NCBI GenBank assembly: GCA_976551045.1
Contig: CDPCPM010000016.1
Coordinates: forward strand, 1,302,001-1,366,000
Direction of reading: 5' to 3'
Length of the DNA stretch: 64,000 nucleotides
Origin: Glaucostegus cemiculus
Taxonomy: Eukaryota
Numbering within the stretch: position 1 is the first letter of the stretch; every line of letters begins with the position of its first letter. Position numbers and translations under genes: made by a program. The notes under the pieces were generated by a model. It saw nothing but the letters and a program-made list of their open reading frames with translations. It was not told the DNA's origin and did not search any database. Of this stretch, positions 32 through 57,350 are shown piece after piece.

Positions 32-2472
32 CTGAAATCAAATATGTAATCCAAAACCACTGGTATAAAAAATTTGAATCATACAATTAGCACACATTGC
101 AGATTTCAACAATATAACTTAGACTAAACTCACATCACCCATTGCTTGCACAATATCTACCTATCAGGACAAGGAAACAAAATTTAATTTCTAACCATCA
201 GCAAACAGGCTGTTATAATGATCAAGCAGTATCCAAACTTACTTCACCCTAAAGATTATTTCTGATTTTTTTTATATAAAGACACAATTATACAATTGTT
301 TGGATTACCTTAACAAGCAAAGTAAGACAAGAAGATGCATTATGATGTAAATTTTATTAGGATAATTCAAACAAGAAAATCCATATTTATGCATTAATAG
401 GAATTAACTTCCCATGGAGTTCACAGTGATGTCACTGTATGAACCCAACTGAGACCAAGAGTTATGACTTATCTCCATGAATCATTATTACAATACAAAA
501 AGTATTTTCAGCAAAACAAACATAGCTCCCAAGATTCACCAAAGAACCACAAAGACAACAATTCTGATTTACGTAGTTTCATTATTATGGTTAAACAATC
601 CATAGCATATCTCAGGGGTATTATCAAACAAAACCTCTGACACCTACACACAAAATTGAAAGTTGGCCAATGATTTAAACATCTTAAAAGGAAAAAGTAG
701 GCAGATAAGGTTACATTGCTGGAACAGATTATAGAAAAAGAATTTAGGAAAAAAGACAAGCTGTTGCTCAACTAGGAGCTAACACAGTTTGTAATAAAAG
801 GTTTAAGGAATTGATGCAAGTTAGGATGCAGACAGCAGAGTGGAAGATGGGAGGCTAATTAAAAGTGGATTGCAAAAATCAAGTCTACAAATAATGGATG
901 GGGAGAAGGATAGAATCATTAGCTTGTGAACGGAGATATGAATTACATTTCATGACTAGATGATAATCAGGTCATCTGTTTCTTGGTCGACAGCATTCAC
1001 AGCAATGACTTTGGAAAACTCTGCTCATCTAATACTGAAAGTCAGACAAGCACCCTGAGAATTTAGTAAGTGTGCAGGGGTCAAGAAAACTGGTGAAGAG
1101 AAGGCACTTGATAGACTTTTCATAATTGTTAAAGGTCAACATTTAAAAAACTGCAAGGGAAGTGTAAAAATAGAAGTGTAAAGACACAAACAATAACAAC
1201 AGATAGGTTTGTCAGACTCGAGAGTAGTTAGTTGCTGGATTACATGAATGCCCTTTGCATGGGTGGTATAGATGGAAGCCACATAGCGTAAATTCAGTTA
1301 AATCAACGGAGTCATTTAGAAGAGTTACAATAAAAGAGATTTCAGACAACTTTTTGAATGCAGTAATTAAATGACTGAAAAAGTACTGTCAAATTCTAAA
1401 AAGGGCAATATTCTTTCACACTAACCTACACTGATATCAATGCATCTATTAACAATGCACTAAAAACTAAAAGTTTAATTCCAGATTTAGTAAGGGCGAA
1501 TAACTTGCAACGCACTACAGTAATGCTATCTGCAGAAATACAACAGCTGAAACCTGCAATAGTCCATTAACCAAATATAAATGCCAGTACATCTGATTTT
1601 CCCCATCTCCTTCCCTCCCTAGTAACCACATATTTGTACTTACATTACATTTCTGCATGCAGCTAGGTAAAGACAGACCAAAACCCAACTACAACTGCTC
1701 CAAAGAACTACAGATCATACATGCACATGCCCCACATGCTCAATTTCACCCCAAATTATTTGGTAATCATGGGGATTCCAATCAGAGAAGAGCACAGCCA
1801 AATATTTGGATACAGTGCAAACTTCCTCGAATCATCACATCTGCAAAGCAGCGGCAGCGTCTTCCCATGCAACATTTGCCCAGATCTTTGAGCCATCATT
1901 AGCCCATTTACAAATCCTTGTTTATTGCAATATCACCGCAGGATCCATGTAACCATATAACAGCGCCGGAGACCAGCTTTGATCTATTCTGCTCATCTCA
2001 GGCAACGAGAAATGCCACTGTGGCAAAACGAGATCAATACATTGCCATCCTTCTTTGCCTGTGCCAAGACCTGCAGCATCGCCAATGTCCTGCAGACTAT
2101 AAATGCGCCCAGAATTAAATCACACTGTTTGGATTCAACCCCGGCAGAAATGGGCAGAAGTTAAGTTTACATAAACACACATAATATTAAGTAAAGGCTG
2201 GAGTGATTGGGTAAGGGGTGGGAAAAACGGGTGCATAATACCACGCAGCTACACTGGGTAACTGGCACGAAGCCATCTCTTCTTATGCGTGCCAAAAGCC
2301 TACTTAATGTACTTTCCCCGGAGTAATTTCTGCAATAATTTCCAGCTAGCACAGCTCAAAAATAAAACGGCTTGCTCCGGTTCTCCTCACACAACGCCTT
2401 ATAATCACTACTTTCCTTCCCACTCCAGGGATGGAGCAGAGGAGTAGGGTGGACGAGGAGAAAACCCCTTAC

Positions 2473-2700
2473 CTGCGACTGTTTATTTCTCCCTGAAGTC
2501 TCCCGTTGAACCCGGCGGCGCCCTATGGATCTAGTTTCCCATATATTCGCGTGCCCCACACATTAGTTTCCTCCGGGCTGGTGGCTAACGGTGCTGCGCT
2601 CCGGCTCTGCACCCCTCCCAAGTCGCTCCACCAGAAACTGTGCGCGATCCCGCACCGGGAATCCGCCTCGCCCGCATCCTCATTGGACGAGGCGCCGCGT
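2473..2700 (-). other. Putative non-coding first exon of an unidentified gene (5' boundary approximate)
   Basis: Strong donor CAG|GTAAGG on the minus strand (plus CCTTACCTG 2467-2475) just downstream of the CpG island. The only ATG in it is closed at once (ATG GGA AAC TAG). Confidence 0.6.
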
Positions 2701-2830
2701 GATTGACAGCCGGCGCGGTCGCGGGAACTGTAGTCACAGAAAGAGGCAGCTGGCAGCACATGAGCTCAGTCAAGAACGACGCCCCCTCGCCTTTCGCTGC
2801 TCCGGGAGGCGGTGGGTAGGACGTCATTAT
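2480..2830. promoter_or_regulatory. CpG-island promoter, probably of a minus-strand gene (possibly bidirectional)
   Basis: Only CpG-dense stretch in the window. Contains GGGAACTGTAGTC at ~2723-2735 (reverse complement GACTACAGTTCCC, the ACTACAnnTCCC ZNF143/THAP11-associated motif), ATTGG (CCAAT box) ~2682, TGATTGACAG (Pbx-Prep decamer) 2700-2709, GACGTCA (CRE-like) ~2820 and GC boxes. Confidence 0.85.
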
Positions 2831-3011
2831 GGATGCACCAATAGTGCCTCCCCTCCCCTCCCACCTTCCCTAGTTATCGGATGTTCTTCTGCAATCATGT
2901 AGGTCAGAACTAAACGTGTTAATAGGCAATACTGACATTTTGTGGAAGTGTTTTTCATTTTGCAAAGAGCAAAGATCCTGTTCAGAGTGGCTGCTTTTGC
3001 AGACTCCTTGG

Positions 3012-3030
3012 CAGCACCATCTTGTGGCAA
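3012..3030 (-). promoter_or_regulatory. CTCF-like site
   Basis: Minus strand reads TTGCCACAAGATGGTGCTG, close to the CCASYAGRKGGCRS consensus, next to the promoter. Confidence 0.55.
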
Positions 3031-4399
3031 CAGCATGCACGAACAGTTTTATTGATAATGACATTTGGTGAGAATGATTTATGTTTGCAGTACTGTTGTT
3101 CTCAATCTACCTTTAATTGGCTGATATGAGTACTGTTATTTGAAAGGGCGAACACATTTTTTTTAAATCTGATAAAATGACATAGACCTGAAATGTTAAC
3201 TTAATCCTTTTGCAATCTCTGTAGTTGCTCTCTACTGAATATTTACAGCATTTATTTAAATTTTCATTTCATACCTCCCTCCTGTGTTTTCTTTCCAACA
3301 GATTAAACATTTTTCCACCGAAGTGTAAAATGTAAAAGACACCATTTTAGCCACAATGAAGTTGCTTTTGTAAACTTTTATCATCGCAGTAGGGTTTCAA
3401 CAATAAAAACGGTACACATGCATAAAATACAGAGCAATGTTGTGGAGTGAAATGCTAATCTCAACTAAAATAAAAAAAATCTCTGAATTATATCAAAACA
3501 CTTTAAACGTTCTCTTCTTTGAGAGTAATCCTATTATCCATAAGTCGGATTTGTACCTTAGTTCCATGCATCCATTCCTGAGCGAATGGAGTTTTAATTA
3601 CCAAATGCCCCCATTTGTGCGATGTACTGTAGCCACATTAATCATCTCTCTAGTACATAGCACAGCCCACCGCTGTGGGTTTCAACCCTGATGCTGAATC
3701 TGATTAGTGCACAACATCTGGGTCGGCTTTGCTCTATGTACCCTGGACTAGACTGGAGCTCTGATCCCATTTTGGCTTTGTTCTGTTTGATGTATTGCAT
3801 TTTGGTTCTGCTTTCATGACAATCCTTCCAGTTAGGCACTGTGATTAGTTAACGAAAGGTAGCAGGTTTCTGTCTGTACCTTCTTGCAATTTCAAGTCCA
3901 ATATTATTTTTTGCCTGCTGGAATTCAGTTGCAGCGTCAGAATCAGTAATACTGTTTCAGGGGATGTTCAGAACTTTTGCAGATGCTTAAATCCCTTGTG
4001 AAAATACAGAATACTTCGTGCAAATCTCCCAATTCCAAAACTATCATCTCTACTTTTATTTTTATTGAATGAATTTGTGAGGTTTGGCATACTACCAAAA
4101 TAAGTTTTCATGCGTTTCAGAGAGCAGTGCCCTCTTATATTATTTATCACATACAAAAGAAAAATCAATTGCCATACCACAACCCACAGAGTCATGAAAA
4201 AGTATAGTTGTCAGGGCAAAAATATTTGGAACACAGCATGAAAAAGTAATTTTCTCTATATCTTAAATTCAAACATTATTTATATTTTTATATAAATTCC
4301 TATGTCCAAATTTATAATACAGATCGATGTGATCAGCCACTTCCACAACAGAAACAACCGAGAGCCCCGTGGTATTTGCAAAATATCACAATCTCCAAT

Positions 4400-4830
4400 C
4401 CTCTTCTCCCCTCAAGTCTTTGAACACACTGTAGTCTCCCAACTTTGTTCCCTAGCCATGGGCTCCACCCGAAGGTACAGATAGAACCCAGCTATTTTTA
4501 ACATTCCACCTTAAAAATGACCTGAAATTGATCTAGATATCTACCCCATGACGATCCTTGCTATCATCAAACTGCTTATTTCAATTTTCTTAACGTTGCC
4601 AGACTCCACTCTTGTCATCTGTCATTGAAGCCCTCTAAATGTGCACTTCCGTTTGACTGCCTGGTTCTACGCTCTAAAACTGACCTCTTCCAAAACTCTG
4701 GCTGTCCATGTCCTAACTCAAATCAAATTCTGTCCACCCATTAGCCCTGTGCTTGCTCGCCTACTTTGGGTCACAGTCAGCAAACCTCAAATTTTAAATT
4801 TTCATCCTTGCTTTAAAATCTTCACTTGCT
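4400..4830 (+). mobile_element. L2-type LINE ORF2 C-terminal remnant
   Basis: Translated pieces (..LAVHVLTQIKFCPPISPVLARLLWVTV.. and ..FKIFILALKSS) resemble the L2 motif QNSAARILT..PITPVLADLHWLPV..FKILIL. Confidence 0.6.
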
Positions 4831-4869
4831 TTCTTGCATTCTTGCTTTCACTTGGAAGAAAATGTGGAC

Positions 4870-6105
4870 GGGTGGATTAGTAATTTGCAGACGATACAAA
4901 GATTGGTGGCATTGTGGACAGCGTAGAAGATTGCCAAAGGATACAATGGGATATAGATCATTTGCAGGAATGGGCCGTAGTATAGCGGTTAGCGTAAAGC
5001 TTTACAGCGCCAGCGACGGAGGTTCAAATCCGGCCACTGTCTGTAAGGAGTTTTTACGTTCTCCCCATGTCTGCATGGGTTTCCTCGAGTGCTCTAGTTT
5101 CCGCCCTCTTTCCAAAGACATATGGGTTAGTAAGTTGTGGGCATGCTATGTTGGTGCCGGAAGTGTGACAACACTTGCAGGTTGCCTCCAGATGACTCGA
5201 CGCAAAAGATGCATTTCACTGTATGTTTCAATGTACACGTGACTAATAAAGACATCTTATAAAAACAAAGGTAAATGGAGCTTAATCCGGCCAAGTGTGA
5301 CGTGTTGCACTTTGGGAGATCAGATATAAAAGGACAGTACACAGTTAATGGCAAGACCCTTAACACTGTTGATATATAGAAGAATCTTGGGGTCCAAGTC
5401 CATAGCTCCCTGAAAGTGACTACACAGGTTGATAGGGTGGTAAAGAAGGCATATGGCATACTTGCCTTTATTAGTTAAGGCACTGAGTTCAAAAGTCAGG
5501 AAGTTATGTTGCAGATTTATAAAACTCTAGTTATGGCACATCTGGTGTATTGCATTCAATTCTGGGCACCCCTTTATAGGAAGGATGTGGAGGCTTTGGA
5601 GAGGGTACAGAAGAGGTTTACCAGAATGCTGCCTAGATTAGAGGGTATGAGCTATAAGGAAAGGTTGGACAAACTTGGGGTTGTTTTCTCTGGAATGGCA
5701 GAGGCTGAGGGGATACCTGATAGAAGTTTATAAGATTATGAGAGGCATAGATAGGGTAGACAGCCGGTATCTTTTTTGCAGGGTCAAAATTTTTAATATC
5801 AGAGATCATGCAAGGGCATGCTTTAAAGGTGAGAGGGGGTAAGTTCAAAGGAGATGTGTGGGGCAAGTTTTTAAACACAGAGAGTGGTGGGTGCCTGGAA
5901 TGTGCTGCCAGGGGAGGCAAATATGATAGAGGCATTTAAGAGACTCTTAGATAGGCACATGAATATGCAGAGAATAGAAGGATATGGATATTGTGTGGGC
6001 AGAAGGGATTAGTTTAATTAAGCCTCTAATTACTAGTTCAGTTCAACACAAGATCGTGGGCCGAAGGGCCTGTCCCTGTGCTGTACCATTCTATCTTCTA
6101 TGTTC
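4870..6105 (+). mobile_element. CR1 LINE 3' portion (RT C-terminus and 3' UTR), interrupted by a SINE
   Basis: Peptide LQIYKTLVMAHLVYCIQFWAPLYRKDVEALERVQKRFTRMLP; CR1 3' hairpin GGGCCGAAGGGCCTGT followed by a (TTCTA)-type tail; frameshifts. Confidence 0.92.
4972..5260 (+). mobile_element. tRNA-derived SINE inserted in CR1
   Basis: A box TAGTATAGCGG, B box GGTTCAAATCC, central domain GGGTTTCCTC..GTGCTC..GTTTCC, AATAAA and tail. Confidence 0.88.
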
Positions 6106-6188
6106 CTTCCATTGTCTCAGCCCTGCATTTTTCTGGAATCTCTTACAATGCTATAATACAGAGATATCACAGCTTCTCTATTTCAGGC

Positions 6189-6349
6189 CTTATGAAATTT
6201 ATGTGAAAAATGTAAATAAATAATAACAAATTTTAGTTTCAACTTATATTTTTTGTTGCATGCAGAGATGTAGCTTCACATTACAGAAAATTTGCAATAA
6301 AGACCAGTTTCTAGGAACACAACCTCCCATAACATGGGGGTTGCCTGTA
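6189..6349 (+). mobile_element. Tigger/pogo-like DNA transposon end
   Basis: Ends ..CTAGGAACACAACCTCCCATAACATGGGGGTTGCCTG|TA; homologous to copies at 8090-8290, 9620-9782 and ~20600-20665. Confidence 0.55.
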
Positions 6350-6589
6350 TTACTATGGGTTACATTTCAGAAGTAGTTCATAAACTTCGACGACAAGAAA
6401 GGCAACATCTAAGTGCAAGTTTTCTTTTTGTAATGCTGTGATTATACCACTTTGCCAGTGTAGAGCAAATCTGGAAAATATATGTAGTGTGATATACTGT
6501 TATAAACAATATTTATACAATGGACATAAACATTTATTTTACAAATCTTGACAAGGAAGTGTGTGCTGAATTGATCTCTCTCATATTGT

Positions 6590-7570
6590 GTACCGGGAGT
6601 CTTGGTGTAGCTCAGGGGTCATTGCTGGGCCCATTGTTTGTCATCTATATGAATGATTTGGATAAGAATGTACAAGACATGGTTAGTAGGTTTACAAATG
6701 ACAGTGAAATAGTTGGTATTGTGGACAGCAAACAAGGTTATCAAAATTGAGAGCAATTTTGATCAGCTAGGTAAGTGGCAAATGTTGGTTAATTCAGATA
6801 AGTGCGAGGTGTTGCATTTTGGAAAGTCAAATCAAGGTAGGACTTCCACAATGAGTGGCAGGGCCTTGGGGAGTGTTGTGGAACAGAGGGACTTTGGAGT
6901 ACATGTTTCCCTGAAAGTAGAGTCACTGCTAGACAGGGTGGAGAAAAAGGCTTTTGACATGCTGACCTTCATCAGTCATGGCATTGAGTATAGAAGTTGG
7001 GAAATCACAGTGTGGTTATACAGGACTTTGGTGAGGCCGCACTTGGAGTATTGTGTTCAGTATTGGTCCCCCTGCAATATGAAAGATGTTGTTAAACTGG
7101 AAAGAGGACAGAAACGACTTATAAGGATGTTGCCAAGTCTTGAGGGACTGAGGCCTCAGGAGAGGTTGGACTGGCTAGGATTTTATTCCTTGGAGCGTAG
7201 GCAACTGAGAGGTGTTCTTAGAGAGGTGTATAAGATCATAAGGGACATGGATAGAGTGAATGCACTCAGTCTTTCTCCCAGGGTTAGAGAATCAAGAACT
7301 GGAGGGCATAGGTTTACGGTGAGAGGGGAAAGATTTAATAGGAATTTGAGGGGCAACTTTTCACACAAAGGGTGGTATGAACGTGGAATGAGCTGCCAAA
7401 AGAAGTGGTTGATTCAGGTACAATAACAACTTTTAAGAGATAGTTAGATAGGTAGATGGATTGGAAAGGTTTTGAAGGTTATGAGCCTAATGCTGGCAAA
7501 TGGGACTATCTTGGCCGACTTGGACCAATTGGGCCGAAGGGCCTGTTTCTGTGTGGTATAACTCTATGAA
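6590..7570 (+). mobile_element. CR1 LINE 3' portion (degenerate RT)
   Basis: GVAQGSLLGPLFVIYMNDLD..FTND motif and ORF 6713-7426 (LYRTLVRPHLEYCVQYWSP..); terminal GGGCCGAAGGGCCTGTTTC..ACTCTATGA. Confidence 0.93.
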
Positions 7571-41780: not shown

Positions 41781-42311
41781 GTCGTCGTTGTCGTCATGGC
41801 TATCCCTCAAGGTTGAGGATGCTGGTCTTTGTTCCGGTCATCTATTTATGGGCTCTCAAGTGGCTTATGCTTTCATGCTGGTTCTTGACTAGGAGCTTCT
41901 AGGCATCATATTGACTGCTCCCGTCACCCTCCTCCAATCACCAAAAGACTTGAGAAGCAGCCCACAAAGCGAAGACGCCTGTGCATATATTTGTTTAATG
42001 TGTACTTGATGTTGGACTACAAAAAGCACAAGATGCCTCACAAATCAACCAACTGATTCCAATGGCATGGAAACCACGACGATTGGAGCTGATGGATTTG
42101 TTGCAGCCTGCATCCACCTTCATAGCCATTGAGGTCAAAGTGACTTCGTCCGCCTTTTCCTTGGTTGGATTGTTCTTTGTTAAGGACCTCACCATCGAAC
42201 TTATTGCCACGGGTGACCCTACCAGGAGCATAGCTCCTGACGGCATCGCTCTCAGGATCTCAGGACCACACAAGCTTCTCCACCATGACAAGGTGACAAT
42301 CCACAGAGAAG
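41781..42311 (-). mobile_element. Short non-autonomous RTE-derived element (RTE-type 5' UTR joined to 3' stem-loop and (GAC)n tail)
   Basis: 5' end resembles the Expander/Rex3/BovB-type RTE 5' UTR (CACCTTGTCATGGTGGAG..GGTAGGGTCACCC), recalled from family knowledge. 3' end is ATCCTCAA-CC-TTGAGGGAT hairpin plus GACGACAACGACGAC. No EN/RT coding sequence recognised between them. Confidence 0.8.
42167..42311 (-). ncRNA. HDV-like ribozyme fold (this copy possibly impaired)
   Basis: P1 CTTCTCT/GGAGAAG; P2 GGATTGTC/GA(A)CAATCC; P3 ACC/GGT; 7-nt L3 TTGTCAT; J4/2 CAAA; ~95-nt P4 region containing the hairpin CAGGAGC-TAT-GCTCCTG. Confidence 0.7.
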
Positions 42312-42984: not shown

Positions 42985-44700
42985 AGCGGCATCACCAACG
43001 ACAGTGCATCCCTTCTGACAAGCTTAACGCATTCTATGCACCTTTTGAACAGAAGGGGATTGGAATGTCACAACCCACCCAGATAGCCTCCAATGTACTT
43101 GAACCCACAGTCATTGTTGTAGATGTGAGATCGTTCTTCTGGAGAGTGAACTCTCGGAAAGCATCTGGCCCAGATGGTGTCTCTGGCTGTGTCCTTAGAT
43201 CCTGTGCAGATCAGCTGTCAGGGGTATTTGCAGACATTTTAACCTCTCCCTGCCTCAATCTGAGGTTCCATCCTGCTTTAAGAAGACCACTATCGTCCCA
43301 GTACTTAAAAAAAAAACAAGGTAACATGTCTTAATGACTACCGCCCAGTGGCACTGACATCCACCATCACGAAGTGTTTTGAGAGGCTGGTCAAGGTACG
43401 CATTAACTTCAGCCTCCCAGACAATCTCGACCCACTGCAATTCACCTACCACTGAAACACCTCCTTGGCCCTACACTCGTCTCTGGAGCATCTGGACAGT
43501 AAAGGCACTTGCGTTAGACTATTGTTTATTGCCAACAGCTCCGCCTTCAATGCTATAATTCCAAGCAAATTCATCTCCAAACTCCTAGGTCTGGGACTCA
43601 GCACCTCCCTTTGCAACTGGATCCTTGACTTCCTGACCAACAGGCTGCAGTCAGTAAGGATAGGCAGCAACACCTCCGCCATGATTATTCTCAACACTAG
43701 TGCCCCACAAGGCTGCGTCCTCAGCCCCCTCTTCTATTCCCTATACACTTACGACTGTGTGGCAGGATTCTGCTCTAACTCCATCTACATGTTTGCAGAT
43801 GATACCACCGTAGTGGGCCAAATCTCAAATAATGATTAGTTGGAGTACAGGAAAGAGATAGAGAGCCTAGTGAAATGGTGTCATGACAACAACCTTTCCT
43901 TTTGTGACAGCAAAACAAAAGAGCTGATCATTGACTTCAGAAAGGGGAGCAGTGTACATGCTCCTATTTAGGTCAACGGTGCTAAGGTCAAAAGGGTTAA
44001 GAGCTTCAAGTTCCTAGGAGTGAACATTACCAATATCTTGTCCTGGTCCAACTATATAGATGCTATGGCCAAGAAAACTCACCACCACCTCCATTTCCTC
44101 AGGAAGCTAAAGAAATTTGGCATGTCTGCTTTGACCCTCACCAATTTTTATTGATGCAGCATTGAAAGCATCCTATCCGGATGCATCACAGCTTGGTATG
44201 GCAACTGCTCCGCCCGTGACCACAAGAAACTGCAGAGAATTGTGGACACAGCTCAGCACATAACAGAAACCAATCTCCCCTCCGTGGACTTCTCATTGCC
44301 TCAGTAAAGCAGGTAACATAATCAAAGACCCCACCCACCCCAGACATTCTCTTTTCTCCCCACTCCCATTGGGCAGAAGATACAAAAGCCTGAAAGTACT
44401 ACCACTAGGCTCAAGGACAGCTTCTATCCCGCTGTTATAAGACTATTGAATGGTCCTAGTATAATAAAGTGGACGCTTGACTTCAAAATCTACTTTGCTA
44501 AGGCCTCGCTCCTGACTATCTACCTGCACTGCACTTTCTCTGTAACAGTAACACTTTATTTTGCATTCTGTTATTGTTTTATCTTTCACTACCTCAATGC
44601 ACTGTTGTAATGAAATAATCTGTATGAATGGTATGCAAAACAATTTTTTTTCACTGTACCTCAGTACATGTGACAATAATAAACCAATTTACCAATTTTT
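42985..44700 (+). mobile_element. Rex1/Babar LINE, 5'-truncated, RT pseudogene
   Basis: [65 protein letters not shown]; stops and frameshifts; 3' UTR ending AATAAACCAATTTACCAATTT. Confidence 0.95.
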
Positions 44701-56091: not shown

Positions 56092-57350
56092 GTGTACAGT
56101 TTTGGCTGTCCTGCTAGAGGAAGGACATCATTAAACTAGAAAGAGTGCAGAGAAGATTTATGAGCATACTGACAGTACTTGAGGGCCTGAGTAATAAGGA
56201 GATGTTGGGCAGGCTAGCACTATATTCCTTGGAATGGAGGAGATTGAGTGGTGACCTTATAGCGGCATATAAAATCATGAGGTGCACAGACAGGGTGAAC
56301 GCACATCGTCTTTTTCCCAGAAAAGGGGAACTAAAAACTGGAGAGCATAGGTTTAAGGTGAGTGACGAAAGATTTAAAAGGTACCTGACGGGCACCCTCT
56401 TCACACAGAGGGTGGTGTATATATGGAATGAGCTGCCAAAGAAAATGGTTGAGGCAGGTACATTAAATTCCTTGGTGTTAACATATCAATTGAACTGTCC
56501 TGGGCCCAGCACATGGATGCAATCACAAGGAAGGCGCACCAGCATCTTTACTTTCTTTGGAGGTTAAAGAGGTTGGGTTTGTCACTAAACACTCTAACAA
56601 ACTTCTACAAATGTACTGTTGGAAGTATCCTGACTGGTTGCATCATGGTCTGCTGCGGCAATTCAAGTGCACAGGAACATAAGAAGCTGCAGAGATTAGT
56701 GAACTCAGCCCCATACATCACTGGCACATCCCCCCTCACCATCGGAAGTATCTACATGAAGTATTGCCTCAGCAAAGATCCCCACCATCCTGGCCATGCC
56801 ATCTTCTCGCAGCTACCAGTGGGCAGGAGGTACTGAAGTCTGAAGCTCTACACCCCACCAAGTTCAAGAACAGATATTTCCCATCAATCATTCAGTTCTT
56901 GTACAAACCTATACAACCCAAATCATTATCTCAGTATAGTAACACTTTGACCACTTTGCACTACATTGGACTTAATTTTTTTGTTGTTCTAATTGTATTC
57001 TTTCATGTTTTATGTTTTCCTTGTGAATGCTGTTTATATGATGCTACCTGCCTGTGATGTTGCTGCAAGTAGGTTTTTCATTGCACCTGTGCCTACATGT
57101 ACTTTGCATATGGCAATAAATTTGACTTTGAACAGAATAACAACATTAAAAAAAAGGGATAAGTGCAAGGATAGGAGTGGTTTAGAGGTACAGTATATGG
57201 AGTATACACCATATACAGTATACAGTATACACCATATACAGTATATGGAGCAAAAGCAGGCAAATGGGACCAGCTTGGTGGGCTCCAGGGTCAGCATGGA
57301 TGAGTTGGGCTGAAAGGCCTGTTTCCATGGTATATTACTCTATGGCTATG
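56092..57350 (+). mobile_element. CR1 3' portion with a nested Rex1 3' fragment (~56466-57130)
   Basis: CR1 peptide RRLSGDLIAAYKIMR..FTQRVVYIWNELP switches to Rex1 (KAHQHLYFLWRLK..NFYKCTVGSILTGCI); CR1 resumes at ~57135 to its terminal hairpin. Confidence 0.9.
57189..57250. repeat. Short tandem expansion inside the CR1 3' UTR
   Basis: Reiterated CAGTATA / TACACCATATA units bounded by CAGTATATGGAG on both sides. Confidence 0.8.

Follow-up and report, generated by a model that had tools for sequence, protein, structure and literature searches.

An internally deleted RTE derivative with an HDV-like 5' fold in Glaucostegus cemiculus, and the deletion variants around it

The element and its surroundings

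We analyzed a 64,000-nucleotide stretch of the Glaucostegus cemiculus genome (contig CDPCPM010000016.1, positions 1,302,001 to 1,366,000; hereafter the window), in which an earlier note, made from the letters alone, had described a non-coding RTE derivative headed by an HDV-like ribozyme fold. The element is real and was correctly described, and the interpretation given there is supported in outline. On the minus strand it consists of nt 1-453 and the last 82 nt of L091, a 3,865-bp APE-RT-zinc-finger LINE of the same genome; the alignment (85% identity) placed element nt 1-444 on L091 1-453 and nt 443-527 on L091 3784-3865. The coordinates proposed for P1, P2, P3, L3 and J4/2 were all confirmed pair by pair (Table 1). 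P1 is formed by C-G, U-A, U-A, C-G, U-A, C-G and U-G, that is, six Watson-Crick pairs and one U-G, P2 has 8 pairs and the single bulge at A42174, and P3 (ACC/GGT) has the pairs A-U, C-G and C-G. A single P1.1 pair is possible, G42289-C42274 (G23-C38), and C42179 (C133) is followed by AAA in J4/2. The base of P4, which had been said to pair poorly, was found to pair at nt 45-49/124-128 with one U-U, and these pairs covary across families.

Table 1. Features of the element, in coordinates of the window
Feature	Position	Strand	Remark
Whole element: bipartite non-autonomous RTE derivative, junction subfamily 'A'	41781..42311	-	parent 1-453 joined to 3784-3865
P1 5' strand; +1 = C42311	42305..42311	-	predicted cleavage site immediately 5' of C42311
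P2 5' strand	42295..42302	-	
P3 and 7-nt L3 loop	42282..42294	-	G42289 = predicted P1.1 base; A42286 = G25-equivalent, mutated from G
P1 3' strand (G37 = 42275) and C38 (42274)	42274..42281	-	C38 = predicted P1.1 partner
P4 domain; basal helix 42267-42263/42188-42184	42180..42273	-	basal helix and inner hairpins covary across RTE families
J4/2: catalytic-position C42179 (C133) and A78-equivalent	42176..42179	-	C in 58/60 family copies
P2 3' strand, one bulged A (A42174)	42167..42175	-	
Retained 5' UTR module, parent nt 146-362, predicted hairpins	41963..42166	-	last hairpin ends at the breakpoints' lower bound
Dispensable 5' UTR segment, parent nt 363-455	41870..41962	-	missing in most sibling subfamilies
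Deletion junction, CA microhomology (2 nt)	41868..41869	-	~3,330 bp of parent gone
Last 8 codons of parent ORF and stop (C2H2 zinc finger tail)	41842..41868	-	
3' UTR	41796..41841	-	5-bp hairpin at 41818-41805
(GAC)n microsatellite tail, five GAC/AAC units	41781..41795	-	

The element was said to have no recognisable ORF. This held for intact protein-coding ORFs, none of which is present, and failed in that the 8 terminal codons and stop of the parent ORF are kept, as its only remnant, and that an 83-codon ATG frame at 42246-41995 (-), within the 5' UTR, remains open in the window copy. We rejected this frame as a genuine ORF1, since it had no support in the atlas search (recognition 1155, best 0.86) and its ATG was not conserved in the alignment of heads described below. 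The proposed 3' stem-loop and (GAC)n tail fared unequally: the tail is present, and the stem-loop is a 5-bp hairpin with a stability like that of shuffled sequences (z -0.6 to -0.7). The 3' UTR is likely to have been the recognition site for the parent protein. A Pol III head was absent, as claimed; no tRNA was found at the 5 loci scanned, and there was no A/B-box regex match and no Rfam small-RNA match, which ruled out a classical SINE with a tRNA, 7SL or 5S head. The Rfam scan gave no HDV or CPEB3 match in the region of the window either, even at E<=10, and no ribozyme family at 8 related loci. No convincing TSD flanks the window copy, the best candidate being a 6-mer with 1 mismatch.

The window is rich in other dispersed repeats. 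An RT fragment of another LINE lies at 43456-43836 (+), 1.1 kb from the element, and an ALKBH8_N-like match at 56453-56833 (+) is probably a LINE end. Apart from these two matches, the 26 of 36 long frames of the window that were scanned contained no host exon.

Copies, parent LINE and deletion junctions

A DNA search of the same genome (2.85 Gb) gave 1170 candidates, and the 40 scored were all near full-length with 82-86% identity. In the 30 top copies, conservation begins abruptly at +1, which agrees with the claim that the element starts exactly at the ribozyme pattern, and ends in the GAC tail. TSDs of at least 10 bp flank 21 of these 30 copies and the flanks are unrelated to each other, so an R2-like site-specific insertion in 28S rDNA was ruled out. 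Pattern searches allowing at most 1 mismatch found the head 431 times and the exact junction of the window copy 45 times, with 0 matches for the reversed control in both cases; the expectation that many copies share this junction was thus borne out. We sampled 60 heads (L255-L314), the first 60 of 100 listed among the 431, all of them exact matches and the window copy included. The family majority has a P1 of 7/7 Watson-Crick pairs, which is intact in 47/60 copies, and has U20, C24 and G25 all present in L3. C occupies +1 in 24/30 top copies and 52/60 sampled heads, and A the A78 position in 57/60. In 23/60 copies none of the core features has been lost. Non-CpG divergence was 4.3% and half of the CpGs had decayed (n=56 copies), and the family is therefore old; the window copy differs from the family majority by 5.2% at non-CpG positions and has a private 12-nt deletion near element nt 152. 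We did not accept purifying selection on the core within the family, for which the difference (3.7% versus 4.9% non-CpG divergence, p 0.03) was weak and lay near the search motif. When a second head type was sought by means of a pattern with a G variant of P3, the same genome gave 5 matches, 4 of which belonged to the same family.

We also noted that G is rare just before +1 (4/60; binomial p 0.004 at 20%). In L1TcRz, P1.1 can be disrupted when a G at -1 lengthens P1 (PMC3185411), and such a G could here extend P1 onto C38; a target-site preference is the simpler cause of its rarity.

The 3' end of the family reads as the end of a C2H2 finger, and by walking upstream from it we reached copies that encode RT and also L091, an autonomous-type RTE that shares both ends, as the earlier note had foreseen. 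L091 is flanked by a 14-bp TSD and combines the same head with a decayed APE-RT-zinc-finger frame; it starts at the same C as the window element, directly after the TSD. Pfam detected RVT_1 (E 3e-28), with Exo_endo_phos_2 and C2H2 weaker and below the cut-off. At least 5 other fetched loci span the parent from nt 1 to its end or nearly so, some of them segmental duplicates. Several of the long copies (L115, L117, L118, L120, L121, L124, L125, L311 and L312) share flanks (contigs C530, C364, C293 and C43), and counts of long copies are inflated for this reason. The upstream walk also brought up the motif LLYASETW, which we take to mark RTE. Homologues of the L091 protein are mostly single APE+RT proteins of ~1,050 aa (1,000-1,100) on ~4-kb contigs, with no clade label among their names or in the ESM Atlas results. 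Among the Repbase entries seen in the supplement of Kojima 2018 (PMC5786205), RTE-3_Crp nt 24-155 and RTE-7_PM nt 41-154 resemble family nt 21-150 at ~85-90%, as judged by eye, and the same J4/2 is seen, also by eye, in BovB, RTE-3_MD and RTE1-N1_LA. From this head homology to named RTEs and from the single APE-RT ORF, we assign the parent to the RTE clade. With 70% of the query aligned, the RT of L091 is 76% identical to a protein from a crustacean; with a head like those of crocodile and lamprey RTEs in Repbase, horizontal transfer of the parent is possible.

Short bipartite copies made up 52 of the 60 sampled heads and long copies (3.16 kb) only 2. The eight heads for which BLAST found no 3' end within 4 kb were these two, five that stop at nt 144-362, and L310. 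L285 and L309 stop at nt 359-362, and three heads stop at nt 144-258 with no 3' end found, L257 at nt 144, where the fold ends. By our own grouping, the 52 bipartite copies have ~29 different junctions, of which 21 were seen once and eight recur 2-7 times, together accounting for 31 copies. Their 5' break lies at nt 363-386 in 38 copies and at nt 430-456 in 14, with none lower, so that at least ~363 nt of the 5' end are kept, far beyond the 145-nt ribozyme; 47-165 nt of the 3' part are kept. L310, in which nt ~299 is joined to a ~20-nt tail, falls below the ~363 bound and, like the three heads that stop at nt 144-258, counts against it. A hairpin predicted at nt 342-362, which closes a structured region (fold z-scores of -3.9 for nt 200-300 and -2.1 for nt 146-365), ends where the lower bound lies. 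We rejected pairing between the 5' UTR and the 3' end as the cause of the breakpoint cluster, because no window of long-range pairing scored below z -1.6.

At many junctions the two parts meet bluntly or are separated by 1-4 untemplated bases, and junctions with untemplated bases recur at unrelated loci. L284 and L314 share a three-part structure of nt 1-427, a 37-nt internal piece of the ORF (parent ~2038-2074) and the 3' end. A private G in the 3' UTR was present in 15/21 type-A copies and in 1/41 long copies (27 with C, 12 uncalled). Because untemplated bases, a three-part junction and a private 3' UTR substitution all recur, several junctions, that of the window copy included, were amplified: they are found at unrelated loci with TSDs. 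The locus is one of a swarm of deletion subfamilies and not a member of the single non-autonomous family that had been proposed.

Contigs of four other organisms, from four studies (X1, X2, X3 and X5), have joints of nt ~349-369 to a 3' part, with little cover of element nt 368-453 and with different 3' partners. The breakpoint cluster is accordingly not private to this genome. In a search of sequencing runs, no RNA run containing the element was listed and all shares were below 0.1.

The HDV-like fold in distant RTE heads

Covariation within the family is of little use because its divergence is mostly post-insertion decay. In a metagenome scan whose pattern fixed P3, L3 and the bases after P1 (C38) and left P1 and P2 free, at least 103 loci were matched. 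A P4-J4/2 profile, used to sort the matches into homologous heads and rejects, recognized 71 of the 104 metagenome matches listed and 0 of the 11 viral matches that served as a negative control; about eleven further heads with a short or cut P4 lie within the reject set. Same-strand similarity to the parent ORF was found for 9 of the 37 heads with at least 700 nt downstream, as against 0 of 31 rejects. L3, G22 and C38, and likewise the single flipped G-C of P1.1, were fixed by the search pattern and their invariance is not evidence.

The first classification, based on the motif, contained 39 unique heads. Of these, 24 reached 6 or more of 7 Watson-Crick pairs in P2 (shuffle mean 3.8, maximum 10) and 22 had 7/7 in P1 (shuffle mean 7.7, maximum 15), both tests being inflated by the relatedness of the sequences. 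The first base of P1 was C in 19 of the 22 perfect helices. Over all 71 heads, G37 was present in 62, P1 fell short of 7/7 in 38, and 30 were without a P2 3' strand of 6 Watson-Crick matches. When P2 was located by complementarity alone (41 heads), a C stood six bases before it in 29 and an A occupied the A78 position in 34. We then aligned 38 heads, chosen for a GAC.AA J4/2, with the window element and L091 by MAFFT, blind to structure (alignment A1). In A1, 16 of 19 pairs change on both sides, as do 8/8 pairs of P2, and the covariation score was 0.45 compared with 0.10-0.20 for slid partners. Ranked by MI-APC over 8,048 pairs, P4 took ranks 1-3, 5 and 6 and P2 ranks 4-174 (best 4, 7 and 10), and the ranking of P2 and the P4 base held with 18 representatives of <80% identity. 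The P1 pairs ranked 478-7250 in this fixed-register alignment, since the length of J1/2 shifts their register. RNAalifold independently recovered P2, P3 and the P4 base. The outer pair of P3 varies among A-U, G-U and G-C, within the range that the search pattern allowed. Nested minimum-energy folding does not recover P1, which is uninformative because the fold is a pseudoknot. The comparison of distant RTE heads supports an HDV-like fold in which P2 and P4 covary strongly and P1 more weakly, and the helix covariation anticipated by the earlier note was thus seen between families.

Three metagenome heads (L156, L198 and L234) have a perfect P1 and a very short P4 and represent natural minimal folds. 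At L148:802-985, two heads lie in tandem, 158 nt apart, recalling the SIDER2 double signature.

HDV, CPEB3 and R2 ribozymes have a G at +1 that is paired to U or C at position 37, and this family has C1-G37 rather than G at +1. The C at +1 and the reduction of P1.1 to one flipped G-C pair had been noticed before as atypical points; the C is present, the G-C pair is a candidate P1.1, and both are read as ancestral features of the lineage, with the active L1TcRz as precedent, and not as damage. L1TcRz, whose P1.1 is a single pair, cuts just before C1 and is also functional in the non-autonomous NARTc (PMC3185411). The trypanosomatid ribozymes differ from HDV and R2 in the orientation of the P1 G-C and in the P1.1 bases, and earlier HDV-like descriptors were judged too restrictive (PMC4035085). 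With these precedents, C1-G37 and a one-pair P1.1 do not argue against activity. The window copy itself carries the changes G26A (at the G25-equivalent), C7U, C129U and G131A. The A at the G25-equivalent was correctly put down to CpG decay, as G is found in 48/60 copies. The same G-to-A change in L3 abolished cleavage in Nasonia R2 and did not fully do so in HDV (PMC3774820), and by this analogy G25A is likely to have crippled the ribozyme of the window copy. The suspicion that this copy may be inactive is strengthened by G25A together with C7U, and it is likely dead.

Origin, mobilisation and known relatives

We consider, with a probability of about 0.75, that the window holds an old, decayed copy of an internally deleted RTE derivative, whose HDV-like 5' fold likely self-cleaved at C+1 and which would have been copied in trans by the parent protein. 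Parent and derivative share both ends, and recurring junctions were amplified at unrelated loci with TSDs. The derivatives would have arisen repeatedly, each time reverse transcription, having started from the 3' tail and covered 50-165 nt, switched to the 5' UTR; such template jumps during target-primed reverse transcription would have landed mostly at nt 363-377. Pol II transcripts, from read-through or from an internal promoter, may then have been trimmed to +1 by C75-type self-cleavage. The parent APE-RT protein presumably recognized the final ~50 nt and depended on the structured first 362 nt, within which nt 146-362 may have been needed as a promoter or protein-binding module, or may mark a jump hot spot. 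The family is probably extinct.

The sharp 5' end is equally expected if an RNA polymerase II promoter inside the 5' UTR fixed +1, with a fold that was non-catalytic or slow and served mainly for protection or protein binding. Such a promoter would need downstream sequence, and all 52 bipartite copies indeed retain at least 363 nt, well past the 145-nt fold; Pr77 of L1Tc, moreover, is a promoter that starts at +1 as well as a ribozyme (PMC3185411), and the first pair and P1.1 of the family are unlike those of HDV and R2. We nevertheless regard this alternative as rather unlikely, because the catalytic-position C and N-A-A occur in 29/41 distant heads that were found by P2 complementarity alone, P2 and P4 covary, and a C1 with one-pair P1.1 geometry is catalytically active in trypanosomatids, which by analogy would suit a ribozyme here. 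Less probable again, and to our minds distinctly improbable, is that the short copies were never self-propagating and that each came fresh from full-length RNA by a hot-spot jump, so that repeated junctions are recurrent accidents. The diversity of junctions (~29 among 52 copies, 21 of them single), the tailless ends of L285 and L309 at nt 359-362, which hint at a mechanistic hot spot, and the joints at nt ~349-369 with different partners in four other organisms would all fit fresh jumps. They have to be set against the eight junctions found 2-7 times each among the 60 loci, some with untemplated bases and one made of three parts, against the type A private substitution that nearly all long copies lack, and against the excess of short over long copies among intact heads (52 versus 2 of 60). 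A one-off genomic deletion in a LINE copy with a chance pseudoknot pattern could be suspected from the missing TSD of the window copy and the missing Rfam match. The 45 junction copies, the 1170 genome candidates, the TSDs in 21/30 relatives and the cross-family covariation refute it, and we assign it a negligible probability.

We also entertain, only tentatively and as the less probable outcome, a wider claim that goes beyond our preferred reading of a derivative mobilised in trans. BovB-related RTEs across many animal groups might carry an active, undescribed HDV-like subtype (C1-G37, flipped G22-C38, long branched P4) that is missed by Rfam and by G1 descriptors, and the deletion series might define nt 146-362 as a second essential module in cis and a ~50-nt 3' site for trans-mobilisation.

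The earlier note had named R2 as the precedent for short derivatives and had not named RTE; bipartite RTE derivatives and their link to a ribozyme had already been published. According to Kojima 2018, the bipartite non-autonomous LINEs that RTE, Ingi, Vingi and R2 give rise to have in most cases retained the true 5' end, and a 5' self-cleaving ribozyme was proposed there as a cause of this retention (PMC5786205). Bipartite RTE derivatives have been called common (PMC7245038), and HDV-like ribozymes in RTEs have been reviewed (PMC6765202). Like the window element, RTE1-N1_LA, RTESINE1/2, MAR4_MD, WALLSI3 and the Bov-A unit have RTE 5' and 3' ends and no ORF, no small-RNA head and a microsatellite tail, and the head of RTE1-N1_LA (397 bp) is homologous to that of our family (PMC5786205). 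Unlike those elements, the present ones derive from another RTE family in another host, coexist as ~29 junction variants, and have measured lower bounds for the retained sequence, ~363 nt on the 5' side and ~47 nt on the 3' side. The consulted sections of PMC5786205 contain neither a fold nor covariation, and our literature search, with Ruminski 2011, Repbase and most subscription papers outside its scope, found no fold or test of a BovB-type head. The junction series is useful as a natural deletion map.

L1TcRz/NARTc, RIME and SIDER resemble the family in having an HDV-like fold at +1 of a LINE and of a short derivative (PMC3185411, PMC4035085). L1TcRz also shares C1 at +1 and has a single-pair P1.1 like the one predicted here, and the effect of a G at -1 implies a C38 partner (PMC3185411). 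It differs in that it belongs to the Ingi clade and is a 77-nt ribozyme with a short P4 and proven activity, whereas our family belongs to the RTE clade and has a predicted ribozyme with a ~95-nt branched P4. R2 SIDEs and R2 ribozymes are comparable in their internal-deletion derivatives, their HDV-like heads and the importance of the L3 G (PMC5786205; PMC3774820). R2, however, is specific to 28S rDNA and uses a restriction-like endonuclease, whereas copies of the present family are dispersed and flanked by 10-14-bp TSDs, and their parent is of the APE type. The RTE ribozymes of Ruminski et al. 2011, as cited in PMC5786205 and PMC6765202, are likewise HDV-like, lie at the 5' end and were proposed to release the element from co-transcripts.

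The covariation suggests that the 5' end common to BovB-like RTEs adopts an HDV-like fold similar in type to that of L1Tc. The fold bears on the question, raised by Kojima, why only RTE, Ingi/Vingi and R2 spawn bipartite derivatives (PMC5786205). With the ~29 natural deletions, the cis-sequence that mobilised RNAs retained can be delimited to ~363 nt from the 5' end and ~47 nt from the 3' end. This map is of practical interest because RTE-1_MD is under development as a two-RNA gene-insertion system whose template carries cognate UTRs (PMC13708176). The tRNA-headed RTE SINEs (Bov-tA, AfroSINE and SINE2-1_EC) are also mobilised by RTE and have a Pol III head, in contrast to the window element, which is headless in this sense and keeps the whole fold; the body of SINE2-1_EC, as given in the supplement of PMC5786205, aligns with P4-J4/2 of this type of head.
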